From Eubacteriales bacterium (GTDB lineage: Bacteria; Bacillota; Clostridia; Oscillospirales; CAG-272), in NCBI GenBank assembly GCA_045651165.1, contig JAZRRX010000037.1, positions 584 through 64,583 on the forward strand: 64,000 nt of DNA, in the 5' to 3' direction. How positions within the stretch are numbered: the stretch's first letter is position 1; each line of letters starts with the position of its first letter. Positions 3,792 through 23,118 of the stretch are shown here, piece by piece. The position numbers and the translations under genes are program-made. The notes under the pieces are model-generated. The model did no database searches. It saw only the letters and a list, made by a program, of their open reading frames with translations, and was not told the DNA's origin.

Positions 3792-4172
3792 TTATTGGTC
3801 TTGTTCGGACGGTTTTTCGTATTCCTTATCGATAACCTCAACTTGAAGATAATCATAATATTCTTCCATAAGGTCATTAAGTTGAATGCAATAGGACATA
3901 AACAAACCACTAATTGCATATCTCTTTCTTTCATCCTCCTCAAATTCGGGGAGCGCAGATTTGGACTGCACCATGATTTCAGTAGCACCCTCGTCTATTG
4001 TATAGTCGAGTTCGCCTGCATAAACCACGTTGATTGAGTTGATAAGCAACATTGTCATTGATGAAAGTGCCGCGCAAAGAATGTCGTAACCCTCATCACC
4101 ATAGCCTGTGTGTCCTGTTTCACGGAATCCGTAAAAAATACCGTCATTTCTAAAAAAAACTACTTTTGTCAT
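3792..4172 (-). CDS. prp: ribosomal-processing cysteine protease Prp
   Basis: GHTGY...DILCAALS motif; lies between rplU and rpmA. Confidence 0.92.
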
Positions 4173-18256: not shown

Positions 18257-18301
18257 GGGAATTTTATGATATTTTTAATTTTTTTAGAAAGGGGTTTTTC
18301 A

Positions 18302-20233
18302 ATGCTTGCAATTACAGTTAATGAACTTGCTATGTCTTTTGGAGCAAGAGATTTATTCAAAAAAATAAGTTTTGCTCTTGAAGAAAATGACAAGCTCGGC
18401 ATTATTGGCACAAATGGATGTGGCAAGTCCACCCTTTTTAAGATAATTCTTGGTGAAACCGATGCCACAAGTGGCAATGTATTTATCGCAAAAAACAAAA
18501 CTATTGGCATTTTGACCCAGGATTGCGCCTTTGAAGTATCAGACCTCGTTGGCAGAACTGCGCTTGAACAGATGTATGCCGCCTTCCCCGAGCTCATTCG
18601 AATGGAAGAAAAGCTTGCTTTTCTTGAAGAAAAAATGGCAAGTGAAGTGAACCCTAATGAACACATCAAATTAAGTGAAGAATATCACGAGTTATATACA
18701 AAATTTTCAAACCTTGGTGGTCTTGATTATAAGAGCCGTTGCGCTTCAATCCTTCTCAAAATGGGCTTTGAAGAGCGCGCCTTATCCCTTGATGTAGATA
18801 AACTTTCAGGTGGCCAAAGAACACGTCTTGCTCTTTCAAAGCAACTTTGTCGCGAGCCAGATTTGTTGCTCCTCGACGAGCCTACAAACCACCTTGACAT
18901 CGAAACTGTTCAGGTACTTGAAAATTATATAAAAAATTACAAAAAATGTGTACTCATCATCTCGCACGATAGATATTTCCTCGACCAAGTTACAAACAAA
19001 ACCTTGGCTATGGAGCACGGTGAGGCAAAGCTCTATAACGGCAACTATACCCAAAGTATGAAGCAACGCGAGATTGACCGCGAGATTGCAGAAAAGCACT
19101 ATATCAATCAACAAAGAGAAATTGCACGTCAAGAGGCTTATATTGCCCAGCAACGTGCTTGGAATAGAGAACGAAATATCGTTGCCGCCGAAAGCCGTCA
19201 AAAAATGCTTGACAAAATGGTTAAGCTCGAGCGTCCTAAAGAAGCGCCAAAGCCCGTAAAAATAAAATTCACTCAATCACTGCAAAGTGGAAACGAGGTT
19301 TTAAGGGTTGCTGGACTTTCAAAATTTTTCGGTGAAAAGAAGCTTTTTGAAAATATGGACTTTCTTATTCGCAGAAGTGAAAGGGTTTTCATCATCGGCA
19401 AAAACGGATGTGGTAAATCCACCCTTTTAAAGATGCTTGTCGGTGAATGTGAAATATCAAGGGGTGTAATTGAGGCAGGATATAACGTCGAAATCGGCTA
19501 TTTCGATCAGCAAAACCAAAACTTGACCGAGAGCAACACAGTTCTTGACGAGCTTTGGAATGCCTATCCCGACAAAAAAGAATTTGAAATCAGAAGCGCG
19601 CTCGCACGATTCCGTTTTAGCGCAGATGATTGCGAAAAGACCGTTTCGGTACTTTCGGGTGGCGAGCGAGCAAGATTGACACTTGCTAAACTCATTCTTT
19701 CACCCATGAATTTGCTCATTCTTGACGAGCCAACCAACCACCTTGACATTATGTCACGCGAGGCGCTTGAATCGGCTCTTGAAGAATTTGGTGGCACAAT
19801 TCTCATCGTCAGCCACGATAGATATCTTGTAAATAAGCTTGCAACAAGAGTAATTGAAATTGATAACGAAAGAAGCACGGGCTCTGATTTTATTGACTAC
19901 CCCGTATTCAACGTTGGCAATGCCTTTGCAGAATTTATGCACCATAAAGAAACACACCTTGTGTCTTCCCTCTCAGTTGAAGTTGAAAAATCTCCAACAG
20001 CGCAAAAAGAGGATTTTATGGCTCGTAAAAAGCAAGCATCCGATGCAAGACGTGAGCAAAAGCGCATTGAAAATCTCAAAAAAGAGCAAGAGCAAATTGA
20101 AAAAGAACTCGAGCAAATTGAAGCAGACCTCTATGGTGATGCCGCAACGGATTATAAAAAAGCAGCCGAGCTCACCGCCAAAAAGGATGCTCTCGAAGAG
20201 CGCCTTATGGAAATTTATGAGGAATTAGAATGA
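18302..20233 (+). CDS. ABC-F family ATPase
   Basis: Two Walker A motifs (GxNGCGKST), two LSGG signatures, LLDEPTNHLD twice, no TM, C-terminal coiled coil. Confidence 0.95.
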   Translation: MLAITVNELAMSFGARDLFKKISFALEENDKLGIIGTNGCGKSTLFKIILGETDATSGNVFIAKNKTIGILTQDCAFEVSDLVGRTALEQMYAAFPELIRMEEKLAFLEEKMASEVNPNEHIKLSEEYHELYTKFSNLGGLDYKSRCASILLKMGFEERALSLDVDKLSGGQRTRLALSKQLCREPDLLLLDEPTNHLDIETVQVLENYIKNYKKCVLIISHDRYFLDQVTNKTLAMEHGEAKLYNGNYTQSMKQREIDREIAEKHYINQQREIARQEAYIAQQRAWNRERNIVAAESRQKMLDKMVKLERPKEAPKPVKIKFTQSLQSGNEVLRVAGLSKFFGEKKLFENMDFLIRRSERVFIIGKNGCGKSTLLKMLVGECEISRGVIEAGYNVEIGYFDQQNQNLTESNTVLDELWNAYPDKKEFEIRSALARFRFSADDCEKTVSVLSGGERARLTLAKLILSPMNLLILDEPTNHLDIMSREALESALEEFGGTILIVSHDRYLVNKLATRVIEIDNERSTGSDFIDYPVFNVGNAFAEFMHHKETHLVSSLSVEVEKSPTAQKEDFMARKKQASDARREQKRIENLKKEQEQIEKELEQIEADLYGDAATDYKKAAELTAKKDALEERLMEIYEELE

Positions 20234-20236
20234 TAT

Positions 20237-20267
20237 AAAAGGAACGGACAAAAGCCCGTTCCTTTTT
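20237..20267. terminator. bidirectional terminator
   Basis: AAAAGGAACGG...CCGTTCCTTTT. Confidence 0.8.
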
Positions 20268-20291
20268 CATTACTACCAAAACTATTATTTT

Positions 20292-21440
20292 CTATTCATC
20301 ACTTTGACTTTTTTGCCACGCGATTTCACCGTTCACAATGGTATATTTCACAGTAGATGCTATTTCCAAAGGATCACCGTCATAGATGACAATGTCGGCA
20401 TCCTTTCCCTCTTTTAAGCTGCCCAATCGGTGATCCACTCGGCAAATGCGCGCGGCATCTATTGTAATAGCTCGCAGCGCTCCCCATTTGCTCATGCCCT
20501 CCTTAACAGCAAGACCTGCACATAGTGGTAGATATTGAATTCTTGACACAGGATGATCCGTTGTCAGTGCCACTGTTGCTCCAGATTTTTGCAATACACC
20601 CGCCGTTTTGAAATCCGAAAGACTAACCTCATCCTTGCTTCGTGATGCAAGCGAAGGCCCAACGATAGCAGGATATCCGCTTTTCGCAATCTCGTCTGCA
20701 ATCAAATGCCCTTCAGTACAATGATCCAGTGTAAGTCCCAATCCAAATTCATCAGCTATTCTAATTGCGGTAAAAATATCATCGGCTCGATGCACATGCG
20801 CTTTAAGTGGTATCTTTTTTTCAAACAAATCACGGTAACATTCCATACAAAATGATTGCTGATTACAGTTATCGCCACTAAAATACTGCCTTGCTTTCGT
20901 CAACTCTTCTCTAATCAACGATGCAATTCCCATACGGGTGGAGGGTATATTTCCATTTGTTCCATAATTATTCATTGGATTTTCGCCAAAGGCAATTTTT
21001 ATCGCCGCAGGCGCAAGGACAATCATATCATCAATTCGTCTGCCGTGTGTTTTGATGAAAGCAAACTGCCCTCCAATTGGATTTGCACTACCAGGGCCTA
21101 CCATCACGCCTGTGATACCAACAGCCAAAGCGTTGTGAAATGCGCTATCCATTGGATTTATTGAATCAATAGCACGAACGCACGGAGTAATGGGATTAGT
21201 CCCTTCGTTAGTTTGATCGCCTGGATTACTTTTCTTTTCTTCTGCCATTCCTATGTGGCTATGAGCATCGATAAAACCCGGATATACTCGAAGCCCTGAT
21301 GCATCAATGATTTTCATTCTTTCAGTGGGTGTTATATTTCCCGCTATCCTAATTATTTTTCCCTTATCTATCAAAACATCAGCATAGCTTTCTTTTTTTG
21401 TTTCCATGGTAAAAACCAATCCATTTTGAATTAAAATCAC
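20292..21440 (-). CDS. metal-dependent amidohydrolase
   Basis: PGFIDAHSH, KIAFGENP, AHVHRADD, DHCTEG, TTDHP and GSLKEGKDAD motifs. Confidence 0.9.
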   Translation of the reverse strand: MILIQNGLVFTMETKKESYADVLIDKGKIIRIAGNITPTERMKIIDASGLRVYPGFIDAHSHIGMAEEKKSNPGDQTNEGTNPITPCVRAIDSINPMDSAFHNALAVGITGVMVGPGSANPIGGQFAFIKTHGRRIDDMIVLAPAAIKIAFGENPMNNYGTNGNIPSTRMGIASLIREELTKARQYFSGDNCNQQSFCMECYRDLFEKKIPLKAHVHRADDIFTAIRIADEFGLGLTLDHCTEGHLIADEIAKSGYPAIVGPSLASRSKDEVSLSDFKTAGVLQKSGATVALTTDHPVSRIQYLPLCAGLAVKEGMSKWGALRAITIDAARICRVDHRLGSLKEGKDADIVIYDGDPLEIASTVKYTIVNGEIAWQKSQSDE

Positions 21441-21468
21441 GCATTTATCTCCCTAAAATTTTTTTCAT

Positions 21469-21501
21469 GTATAGTTTGTCTTAAAGCGGTCAAAACTATA
21501 C
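21469..21501. promoter_or_regulatory. palindromic element reading as a SigG-like promoter on both strands
   Basis: GTATAGTTT-15 nt-AAACTATAC; GTATA-18 nt-AAAACTA on plus and GTATA-18 nt-CAAACTA on minus. Confidence 0.55.
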
Positions 21502-21530
21502 TCGTTACCAAAATTAAAGGAGAAAATTTT

Positions 21531-21803
21531 ATGAACAATAATTATCAAAACAACCAAAACAACCAAAACAACCAAAACAATCAAAACAATAGCAACAAGA
21601 ACAATCAGAATAACAGCAATAACTATCAGAACAATAACAACTACCAGAACAATAGTAACAACAGTAACAACAACTATCAGAACAATAACAACCAGAACAA
21701 CAGCAACAACAAGAACAATAATAACCAAAACAACCAGAACAACAACAAAAACAACAATCAAAACAACCAAAATCGCTTTAATAATCAGAATAACAATAGA
21801 TAA
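21531..21803 (+). CDS. 90-aa Asn/Gln-rich low-complexity protein
   Basis: AAAGGAG RBS; 59 N and 15 Q; AAC/AAT and CAA/CAG synonymous variation keeps the frame; terminator downstream. Confidence 0.75.
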   Translation: MNNNYQNNQNNQNNQNNQNNSNKNNQNNSNNYQNNNNYQNNSNNSNNNYQNNNNQNNSNNKNNNNQNNQNNNKNNNQNNQNRFNNQNNNR

Positions 21804-21853
21804 AAACAATACTAGTTATCATCCTCAAAATTCGCAACAAACTATTAAAAGCG

Positions 21854-21891
21854 AAAAAACGCCTTCCGCATTTATTTGCGGAAGGCGTTTT
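21854..21891. terminator. bidirectional terminator
   Basis: AAAACGCCTTCCGCA...TGCGGAAGGCGTTTT. Confidence 0.85.
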
Positions 21892-21924
21892 ATATTGATT
21901 AAAATTTGCTAAATAAATTTTATA

Positions 21925-23118
21925 TTATTCAGTAGTATAGTTGTCAAAATATCCCTGAATCCAAACGATTGGTGTACCCTTATCGCCGGAGCCGGATGTA
22001 AGGTCGCAAAGTGAACCGATAAGGTCAGTAAGCTGACGAGGTGTTGTACCTTCAGACGCCATTTTACCAACAAGGTTATCATCCTTTTGAGTAATTCTTT
22101 CCTTAATAGCATCCTTAAGAGCATCACCTGAAAGGTCTGCAAAATCGTTGTCTGCAAGATACTTGAGCTTAAGCTCATTGGGTGTGCCTTCAAGACCTGA
22201 TGTATAAGCAGGAGAAACAACGGGGTCAGCAAGCTCCCAAATCTTACCTACAGGGTCCTTAAACGCGCCGTCACCATAAACCATTACCTCAATGCGCTTA
22301 CCTGTTGCATCAAACAATCTCTTTTGAATGTCTTCAACAACAACCTGGCAATCTCTTGGGAAGAGCTTAACCTGCTCATCAGTTGCCTTGTTTGAACCAA
22401 GAAGACCGTAATGCTCGTTATAACCACTACCGTTTACGCTTTCAGACAAAATGTCGTCAAGACCATAAACTTTTTCAGCACCTGCAGCCTTCAAAAGTCT
22501 CTTGCTTCTGTGTCTTGTGTGAATGTCACAAGTCAAAACGTTCTTTGTGTAAGGAAGAACTGCTCTTGGGTCATTTGCAAAGATAATTTCGCAATCAGCA
22601 CCCTGTTCTCTTATAAGTTCTTCATAAAATTCAACGTAGTCAACACCAGTAAATCTGTGTTTTTCATAACCAAAAAGCTCTCTATACTTTTCAAGTGTCA
22701 AAACATCGCTGTAGGGGTTAACACCCATTTCATCAACCTTGTCAAGGGATACAAGATGGTTACCAACCTCGTCAGAGGGGTATGAGAGCATAAGAACAAT
22801 CTTCTTTGCACCTCTTGCAATACCCGTAAGACAAACTGAAAATCTGTTTCTGCTAAGGATTGGCAAAATAACAGCAACTGTTTCTCCACCAAACTTTGCT
22901 CTAATGTCAGTTGCAATATCGTCAATTGTTGCATAGTTGCCCTGTGCACGAGCAACGATAGCTTCGGTCATCGCAACAACGTCGCGATCTCTAATTTCAA
23001 TATTTTCTTCTCTAGATGCTTCAAGTATGCAGTTTGTAACAATCTCAGCAATATTGTCGCCATTTCTAATAATTGGTGCTCTAACACCACGAGAAACTGT
23101 ACCAATAGTACGACTCAT
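21925..23118 (-). CDS. coenzyme F420-0:L-glutamate ligase (CofE)-family protein
   Basis: RGVRAPIIR-GD, TEAIVARAQGN, and DLTSGSGDKGTP C-terminal motif. Confidence 0.8.
   Translation of the reverse strand: MSRTIGTVSRGVRAPIIRNGDNIAEIVTNCILEASREENIEIRDRDVVAMTEAIVARAQGNYATIDDIATDIRAKFGGETVAVILPILSRNRFSVCLTGIARGAKKIVLMLSYPSDEVGNHLVSLDKVDEMGVNPYSDVLTLEKYRELFGYEKHRFTGVDYVEFYEELIREQGADCEIIFANDPRAVLPYTKNVLTCDIHTRHRSKRLLKAAGAEKVYGLDDILSESVNGSGYNEHYGLLGSNKATDEQVKLFPRDCQVVVEDIQKRLFDATGKRIEVMVYGDGAFKDPVGKIWELADPVVSPAYTSGLEGTPNELKLKYLADNDFADLSGDALKDAIKERITQKDDNLVGKMASEGTTPRQLTDLIGSLCDLTSGSGDKGTPIVWIQGYFDNYTTE

Follow-up and report, generated by a model that had tools for sequence, protein, structure and literature searches.

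The stretch of DNA analysed here (the window) comprises 64,000 nucleotides of contig JAZRRX010000037.1 from the Eubacteriales bacterium assembly GCA_045651165.1 (genome G000 in our set) and contains two divergently oriented genes, one encoding an amidohydrolase and the other a short open reading frame (ORF) for a protein consisting almost exclusively of asparagine and glutamine (the N/Q gene and N/Q protein). Together they form a compact, apparently laterally mobile two-gene unit that is present or absent as a whole in the genus. The reading we prefer is that of a module expressed in the forespore, in which a low-complexity spore protein resembling the gamma-type small acid-soluble spore proteins (SASPs) would be combined with an amidohydrolase recruited to forespore expression; judged from sequence comparisons, its chances are about even. 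The unit and its signals are arranged as follows.

20232-20271, both strands: left-border terminator-like hairpin with flanking A/T runs, between the stop codon of an ABC-F gene (20233) and that of the amidohydrolase gene
20292-21440, minus strand: amidohydrolase gene, 382 amino acids (aa), GTG start; family of PDB entry 3OOQ, clade A (see below)
21448-21453, minus strand: ribosome-binding site (RBS) GGGAGA of the amidohydrolase gene, 7 nt 5' of the GTG, read from the sequence
21469-21501, both strands: palindrome, predicted from sequence and conservation to form two overlapping divergent forespore-type promoters
21517-21522, plus strand: RBS AAGGAG of the N/Q ORF, 8 nt 5' of the ATG, read from the sequence
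21531-21803, plus strand: Asn/Gln ORF, 90 aa, ATG start, low-complexity
21856-21891, both strands: right-border two-way terminator with a 15-bp G+C-rich stem and U-tracts on both strands, common to the N/Q gene and the convergent CofE-like gene

The spacer between the two start codons measures 90 bp and holds the inverted repeat GTATAGTTT-N15-AAACTATAC (21469-21501), the 9-bp arms of which are 100% complementary. On the plus strand, a -35 box GTATA (21469-21473) is followed after 18 nt by the -10 box AAAACTA (21492-21498), and on the minus strand GTATA (21501-21497) is followed at the same distance by CAAACTA (21478-21472). The repeat is the sole match to its pattern in the window (none in 100 shuffles) and in the entire 1.6-Mb genome. 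At the left border, the hairpin is absent from a simple terminator scan and was found by folding against shuffled sequences; it has a free energy of -16 kcal/mol on the plus and -20.3 kcal/mol on the minus strand (z -5.8 and -5.7), and 0 of 200 shuffles fold equally well. The right-border hairpin reaches -30.9 kcal/mol (z -7.2). An earlier note on this DNA had described the divergent pair with its 90-bp spacer and 9-bp inverted repeat, a GTATA-18-(A/C)AAACTA arrangement on both strands, each 5' of an RBS, and terminators at both ends of the unit, all of which is borne out by the sequence, including hairpins with U-tracts at either end.

The pairing of the two genes is conserved well beyond the window. 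A scan with one genome per species yielded 41 loci, 39 of which include the 5' end of the enzyme gene; adding the window and genome G014 gives the 41 loci examined here. A divergent small N/Q ORF is present in 38 of these (in L087 it is cut by a contig end), with enzyme identities to the window of 55-94% across the paired loci. In L100, a metagenome-assembled genome (MAG) labelled Sarcina, a 35-aa N-only ORF (MSYNNNNSKNNNNNSNN...NNR, 3966-4076, minus strand) lies convergently downstream of the enzyme gene and has its own GTATA-N17/18 motif. Within the window's genus, the enzyme occurs in 4 of 23 genomes (G000, G003, G010, and G014), and in each of the four the N/Q ORF and palindrome accompany it in the same position. 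In the remaining 19 genomes, all of which were checked beside the conserved CofE-like gene, both N/Q ORF and palindrome are missing. The position is a variable hotspot of the genus (loci L036-L060), bounded by the ABC-F gene (18266-20233) and the CofE-like gene (21925-23118): in three genomes these two are direct neighbours, and elsewhere the cargo includes a NUDIX gene, BspA-type leucine-rich repeat proteins, a MATE-like membrane protein (by eye), and a recurrent ORF of ~170-210 aa. A by-eye assignment of this last ORF (~195 aa) as a transposase was dropped; it has no Pfam family and was left unnamed.

The link to this arrangement is specific to one clade of the enzyme. A quick maximum-likelihood tree groups the 39 paired-type sequences together (clade A, SH-like approximate likelihood ratio test support 100), apart from clade B, which comprises 10 homologues with 43-48% identity from the window's order, including G023 of the window's family. 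None of the 10 clade-B genes has a forespore-type motif or N/Q ORF, and several of them sit downstream of a yabQ-divIC-S1-domain gene cluster, as read by eye. Clade A is sparse, because G053 is the only one of 301 sampled genomes of its family to carry a clade-A copy, with 120 others having a copy of at most 52% identity. Since clade A lies nested among MAGs with different labels, a relative from the window's family carries clade B, and the unit is located in a hotspot, the sequence data suggest that the two genes were acquired together as a single cassette.

The palindrome behaves as two overlapping divergent forespore-type promoters, a reading that is supported by comparison with other genes and genomes. 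In B. subtilis, forespore promoters combine a GNATA -35 box, a spacer of 17-18 nt, and a CATACTA-like -10 box, and both strands of 21469-21501 fit this sigma-F/sigma-G-class pattern. The palindromic form follows from GNATAGTTTG, which reads as a -35 box (GNATA) on one strand and as a -10 box (CAAACTA) on the opposite one, such that the -35 box of one promoter would overlap the complement of the other's -10 box in a back-to-back configuration. Each intergenic region was scanned in both directions for G-N-A-T-R, 16-18 nt, and N-A-N-A-N-T-A. This motif is directed towards the N/Q gene in 38 of the 41 loci, towards the enzyme gene in 33, and both ways in 32, with spacers of 17 or 18 nt solely, and it ends 23-57 nt 5' of the N/Q start in 36 of 37 loci with a defined start. 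The arms are conserved and the central bases variable, even among four close relatives, and L096-L099, the most distant of the paired loci, have kept the motif towards the N/Q gene alone. N/Q genes that stand alone (described below) have the motif 19-59 nt 5' of the start in 12 of 14 cases, and a reverse-direction copy in none of the 14.

The same motif precedes sporulation genes in the window genome, where spoVT follows GTATA-N17-GATACTA and spoVAD follows GTATA-N17-GAAAATA. Across this genome, the pattern G[AGT]ATA-N17/18-NA[AT]A[ACT]TA has 118 sites, 22 of which sit 12-60 nt 5' of an RBS with an ORF of 60 aa or more, as compared to 10 correctly placed sites out of 156 for a reversed control pattern. 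Besides the pair, this gives 20 motif-proximal ORFs. Three of them belong to sporulation-specific families (Spore_II_R, SpoVAD, and SpoVT_C), and four represent YetF/DUF421, DUF1540, Amidase_3 (CwlD-like), and Peptidase_M23 (SpoIIQ-like), which we take to be families with forespore members; random anchors put through the same pipeline gave none of these sporulation or forespore families among 20 ORFs. In the part of the C. difficile regulon study available to us, the sigma-F and sigma-G consensus sequences of that organism are described as resembling those of B. subtilis and each other (PMC3789822), and for the motif described here a sigma-F and a sigma-G reading are inseparable by sequence. 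The earlier note had proposed a two-way SigG-like promoter, of which the forespore type holds up by comparison, given the conserved motif, its placement before spoIIR, spoVAD, spoVT, and YetF-type genes, and the 0 of 20 in the controls, and the assignment to sigma-G in particular does not separate from sigma-F. Its further expectation that homologues of the enzyme would share the divergent N/Q ORF and the palindrome agrees with what we find, the pair being both conserved and co-inherited (38 of 41 loci with the N/Q ORF and 32 with the two-way motif; four of four versus 0 of 19 in the genus). A separate product of the genome-wide search is a 425-aa ORF without Pfam family (G000:C44:232-1509, L123), located 31 nt behind a near-consensus GTATA-N17-CATACTA, which is a candidate unknown forespore gene.

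The N/Q protein is 66% N and 17% Q (83% N+Q), the remainder being S, K, Y, R, one F, and the initial M, and it entirely lacks D, E, A, G, I, L, V, P, T, H, W, and C; its C-terminus reads ...NQNNNR. It matches no Pfam or NCBIfam family at E<=0.01, SASP_gamma included, with the proviso that the composition correction of HMMER may suppress such a query, and by profile it is not a member of the alpha/beta-type SASP family (PF00269). A HMMER homologue search scored 7999 candidates and retained none at E<=0.001, the ESM Atlas returned just unnamed clusters of 47-61 aa at 0.87, which is under the counting level, and a complex prediction for the enzyme profile with N/Q residues 51-90 scored 0.01. Homology search is unusable for a protein of this composition, and synteny and a codon pattern were therefore used instead.

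Several features suggest that the N/Q gene product is a translated, intrinsically disordered mini-protein. The paired N/Q ORFs are 32-90 aa long, and a GGAGG-type RBS is present in all 37 loci with a definable start. Across loci, the repeat number changes by whole codons, the start and the C-terminal N-Q-N-(R/K)-stop being kept, and the differences among four close relatives within the first codons are AAC/AAT wobble changes. Of 36 complete paired ORFs, 35 end in R or K, typically as ...N-Q-N-R/K (the exception is L099), versus 8 of 14 stand-alone ORFs with this C-terminus, although the paired ORFs are probably of common ancestry and their count is not independent. The N/Q stretch is tandem-repetitive DNA with periods of 6, 9, 21, and 33. 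On its antisense strand, there is a 114-aa ORF (21465-21809, minus strand) made up of nearly all V/I/L, lacking its own RBS or promoter, which is a mirror artefact of the AAC/AAT/CAA repeats. A leader-peptide or attenuator role of the N/Q ORF was also considered and rejected, as the ORF points away from the enzyme gene and has a terminator and a convergent gene behind it.

The N/Q gene belongs to a broad class of clostridial genes, lacking annotation, for small proteins of Asn and Gln only. A census based on a narrow codon pattern for N-N-Q-N-N-x-N-N found one clustered pattern site in each module-carrying genome, with 23 of 26 first sites adjoining the enzyme gene and the other three being chance matches in large proteins, and neither the genus nor 18 related families of the order yielded a further N/Q locus with multiple hits. 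In the 301-genome sample of the G053 family, 30 genomes match the pattern, and 14 of 20 fetched loci are small N/Q ORFs (38-70 aa) with an RBS, none of them near an amidohydrolase gene. An even sample of 401 genomes from the whole class gave 34 matching genomes, and ~15 of 29 fetched loci are small N/Q ORFs from many families, eight or nine of them with the strict motif. Stand-alone N/Q mini-genes of 36-70 aa with an RBS are thus found across many Clostridia families, mostly with a GNATA-N17/18 motif, that is, with the same promoter type as the paired genes. Their recurrent neighbours are an RsmF-type methyltransferase gene together with a LUD-domain gene, or a YitT-family gene. The stand-alone loci are L188, L191-L196, L198, L199, L201, L202, and L204-L206, as well as L222-L244.

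Among known systems, the closest parallel is the gamma-type SASP (SspE) of Bacillales, an amino-acid reserve of the spore core that is degraded at germination. Like the N/Q protein, it is small, monocistronic, Gln/Asn-rich, and of low complexity, with a sigma-G-type promoter. The N/Q protein differs in having no sequence relation to it (no SASP_gamma match), a far more extreme composition (83% N+Q), and no E, A, I, L, or V, so that the cleavage site of the germination protease GPR as we know it cannot occur; it is also clostridial and has, in one clade, an amidohydrolase partner. We know of no gamma-type SASP in Clostridia. A second comparison is offered by GerG (CD0311) of C. difficile, which the accessible text of its description portrays as an asparagine-rich, low-complexity spore protein with a variable number of repeats that is highly expressed in sporulation and whose repeats form gels in vitro (PMC5241399). 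According to the same text, GerG is larger, has ~30% Asn as well as GMPNNMSNNMNSNM repeats flanked by functional non-repeat regions, is under mother-cell sigma-E control, and is restricted to C. difficile (PMC5241399), whereas the N/Q protein is near-pure N/Q and has a forespore-type promoter.

The partner enzyme is an amidohydrolase superfamily member by both profile score (Pfam Amidohydro_1 59.2 bits and Amidohydro_3 76 bits, versus cut-offs of 25 and 29.7) and its HxH, Lys, two His, and Asp ligands. H60, H62, K148, H215, H217, H240, D295, and H296 are invariant in 49 of 49 aligned homologues (39 clade A and 10 clade B), the ligand role of each residue being one that we infer, and in a separate alignment the metal ligands are intact in 22 of 22 clade-A sequences. 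The protein is therefore very probably an active metalloenzyme, as far as its residues can tell. Its sole full-length relative among solved structures is PDB entry 3OOQ from Thermotoga maritima (residues 2-373, E 2e-87; profile 2.2e-108), a structural-genomics entry with no assigned function that has the same HxH / H-x-H / H / D-H ligand pattern; the window enzyme differs from it by its separate clade, the forespore-type promoters, and 10 clade-specific invariant residues. These ten residues never vary within clade A, are seldom found in clade B, and include H102, K213, D239, D276, and K278, with K213 and D239 flanking the metal ligands H215 and H240, which is compatible with a change in specificity.

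The next profile matches are partial and comprise the beta-sandwich N-terminus of dihydroorotases and hydantoinases and the C-terminal part of cog1228-type enzymes resembling prolidases and arginine carboxypeptidases. The latter (PDB 2QS8, the prolidase-like 3FEQ/3N2C, and the Zn-dependent arginine carboxypeptidase 3BE7/3DUG) are the next-best characterised relatives (E 9e-15 to 2e-9) and, going by the depositors' names, cleave the C-terminal residue from small peptides or N-acyl amino acids. Their match to the window enzyme covers residues 255-362 or 3-109 and is at the superfamily level, from which nothing firm follows on the substrate. Against NCBIfam equivalogs, there are likewise just partial matches, i.e. 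isoaspartyl dipeptidase TIGR01975 (38.4 bits versus a cut-off of 331), imidazolonepropionase TIGR01224 (56 versus 298), dihydroorotase (at most 60 versus at least 279), hydantoinase (59 versus 393), and Xaa-Pro dipeptidase NF051886 (51.9 versus 500). In the accessible part of the C. difficile sigma-G regulon, a 'putative amidohydrolase', CD2841, is listed with a sigma-G promoter and as detected in spores (PMC3789822).

Taken together, we infer that RNA polymerase with a forespore sigma factor would fire from the palindrome leftwards into the amidohydrolase gene and rightwards into the N/Q gene, and co-expression of both genes in the forespore is, on the evidence of the motif, probable. The N/Q protein would then be a bulk low-complexity protein of the spore core that is broken down at germination to yield Asn and Gln, as is a gamma-type SASP; by analogy, such a storage role is conceivable, and we propose it tentatively. 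Clade A, unlike the housekeeping clade B, would have been recruited to forespore expression beside the N/Q gene, and its members would most likely hydrolyse a small amide or peptide arising in the spore or at germination, possibly N/Q fragments, although we consider it doubtful that the enzyme acts on the N/Q protein or its products. A bolder version, in which N/Q mini-proteins are a widespread spore-core class of Clostridia (the counterpart of gamma-type SASPs) that became interlocked, in one laterally spreading lineage and by way of the self-complementary two-way promoter, with a dedicated enzyme dismantling the polymer at germination, would make the unit a portable 'store plus key' cassette. 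The enzyme would in that case cleave peptides at the N-Q-N-(R/K) end or deamidate side chains; we regard this version as unlikely.

A number of observations weigh against the preferred reading. N/Q mini-genes are widespread without the enzyme, as seen in both samples above (14 of 20 and ~15 of 29 loci), and an enzyme homologue (E<=1e-60) is found in just 4 of the 14 stand-alone carriers, as compared to 121 of the 301 genomes overall, so that functional coupling between N/Q protein and enzyme is not obligatory and appears weak. Conversely, L063 and L065 contain a clade-A enzyme and no N/Q gene, which suggests secondary loss, as they are nested as sister to the window's group in the quick tree. 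All named NCBIfam models score far under their cut-offs for the amidohydrolase, leaving no substrate assignable from families. The step from enzyme to N/Q protein is the weakest of the chain, because most N/Q genes lack the enzyme and two enzyme loci lack an N/Q gene, and the earlier note's proposal that the amidohydrolase mobilises the N/Q polymer is unsupported as it was put, since stand-alone N/Q genes with the same promoter type are common in its absence. Regarding expression, 13 of the 20 motif-proximal ORFs belong to other families or none, not to sporulation, and the strict pattern precedes just 2 of the 35 alpha/beta SASP genes of these genomes, although these are classic sigma-G targets; by eye, they have -10-like CATAATA/CAAAATA boxes with -35 variants. 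The strict pattern is thus not a universal forespore signature in these genomes, and both sigma factor and compartment are read from the motif against the B. subtilis consensus. A search for public sequencing runs covering 20240-21900 returned none. Finally, with an antisense frame that is also open, the openness of the N/Q frame does not speak for coding.

Alternative explanations accept more or less of this evidence. The two genes may be expressed in the same way with no link between enzyme and substrate, as a stand-alone spore protein and an unrelated enzyme recruited to the forespore that travel together through their interlocked promoters, which is a plausible account, if short of an even chance. 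It would agree with the stand-alone N/Q genes beside RsmF/LUD or YitT genes with no amidohydrolase near, the few homologues in their genomes, the retention of the enzyme alone in L063 and L065, and the old and mostly unpaired enzyme family (120 of the 300 other G053-family genomes have only the copy of at most 52% identity). However, the neighbourhood outlasts rearrangement in L100, where the N-rich gene is convergent downstream, pairing persists over the full 55-94% range of enzyme identity, the ten clade-A-invariant positions differ from clade B right next to metal ligands, and the C-terminal N-Q-N-(R/K) is more frequent in paired than in stand-alone ORFs, albeit with a paired count that is not independent. 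The role of the N/Q protein might also be physical, as a polar-zipper, gel-forming, or glass-forming filler by which the dehydrated spore core would be kept immobile or protected, a rather unlikely proposal that is nonetheless compatible with storage. The high N+Q content, the regular Y, K, and R, and the lack of a hydrophobic core fit this proposal, and for GerG the available text reports that the asparagine-rich repeats drive spontaneous gel formation in vitro (PMC5241399). Yet these repeats are dispensable for GerG function, and GerG is a sigma-E-dependent mother-cell protein, as far as the same text goes (PMC5241399), and the freely varying repeat number and length of the N/Q ORFs fit bulk material of either kind.

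Two further explanations dispute the signals themselves. If the palindrome were the operator of a dimeric regulator, both genes could be transcribed from ordinary sigma-A promoters; this would agree with the perfect complementarity of its 9-bp arms, with the conservation of these arms around a variable centre, and with the TATAGT-like and TATACT-like hexamers that lie within them. We favour promoters over an operator because the distance between the arms varies by 1 bp (17 or 18) and because the motif occurs in a single direction, at promoter distance, in L096-L099 and in the stand-alone N/Q genes (14 of 14 without a reverse copy). In addition, the half-sites match the promoters of spoVT, spoVAD, and spoIIR, no regulator gene adjoins the unit, and sigma-70-like sites in the region are at chance level (7 found versus 6.2 expected), making an operator very improbable. 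We give hardly any credence to the view that the N/Q ORF is untranslated, as a slippage-prone AAC/CAA-rich simple repeat or an unstructured RNA. Its tandem-repetitive DNA, the several open frames, antisense included, and the lack of HMMER homologues could be explained in this way, but not the strong Shine-Dalgarno sequence at the right distance 5' of the ATG in every locus with a definable start, the start and C-terminus that are kept while repeats change by whole codons, or early-codon differences that are AAC/AAT wobble in the four close relatives. The N/Q gene also has its own promoter motif and terminator, and its arrangement is found again in unrelated syntenies.

SASP-like small spore proteins and promoters of alternative sigma factors are already known in kind; the interlocked two-way promoter and the unexplained enzyme partner are the unusual parts of the module. 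Our searches of the open-access literature brought up neither clostridial forespore mini-proteins made of Asn and Gln alone nor a pairing of N/Q protein and amidohydrolase, GerG being the only relevant match, and no function for the 3OOQ family, whose code led to just an unrelated paper on a docking method. The composition of the clostridial spore core is much less known than that of Bacillus, and the N/Q class, if true, would alter spore proteome inventories and provide a clostridial parallel to the gamma-type SASPs; such proteins would have escaped notice because their tryptic peptides contain only N/Q and annotation is missing. The palindrome would represent a clean natural case of two promoters for alternative sigma factors that use the same 33 bp in opposite directions, and the pairing offers an experimental handle on an amidohydrolase family of no assigned function, with one solved structure. 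The presence of the cassette in a variable hotspot, in 4 of 23 genomes of the genus, suggests that spore traits may be exchangeable as accessory genes among herbivore-gut Clostridia.

The window genome is a MAG of 1.6 Mb with 38% G+C and 95% completeness. It encodes Spo0A, SpoIVA, SpoVAC/SpoVAD, SpoVT, and one alpha/beta-type SASP, its single PF00269 gene (C41:19368-19535) being located away from the module, in addition to a sigma-G-like protein with 397.5 bits versus an equivalog cut-off of 457. The organism is thus likely a spore-former, as judged by its gene content. SASP genes are present in 35 of the 40 other module-carrying genomes. Searches for the germination protease GPR (Pfam Peptidase_A25) were negative for all 23 genomes of the genus, eight of which are at least 90% complete, and positive for 37 of the 40 other module-carrying genomes. 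A role of the amidohydrolase as a stand-in for the missing GPR was considered and rejected, because GPR is missing in all 23 genomes of the genus and the enzyme is present in only four of them, while the great majority of the other module-carrying genomes have both.

Downstream of the N/Q gene, the convergent gene at 21925-23118 (minus strand) has a 397-aa product that belongs to the F420-0:gamma-glutamyl ligase family (PF01996, E 3e-58) and scores well under the CofE equivalog cut-offs. Of the 23 genomes of this gut Clostridia genus, 22 have full-length matches to the CofE-like protein at 82-97% identity, and the G017 copy is split over two contig ends (95-96%). It occurs here in a non-methanogen.

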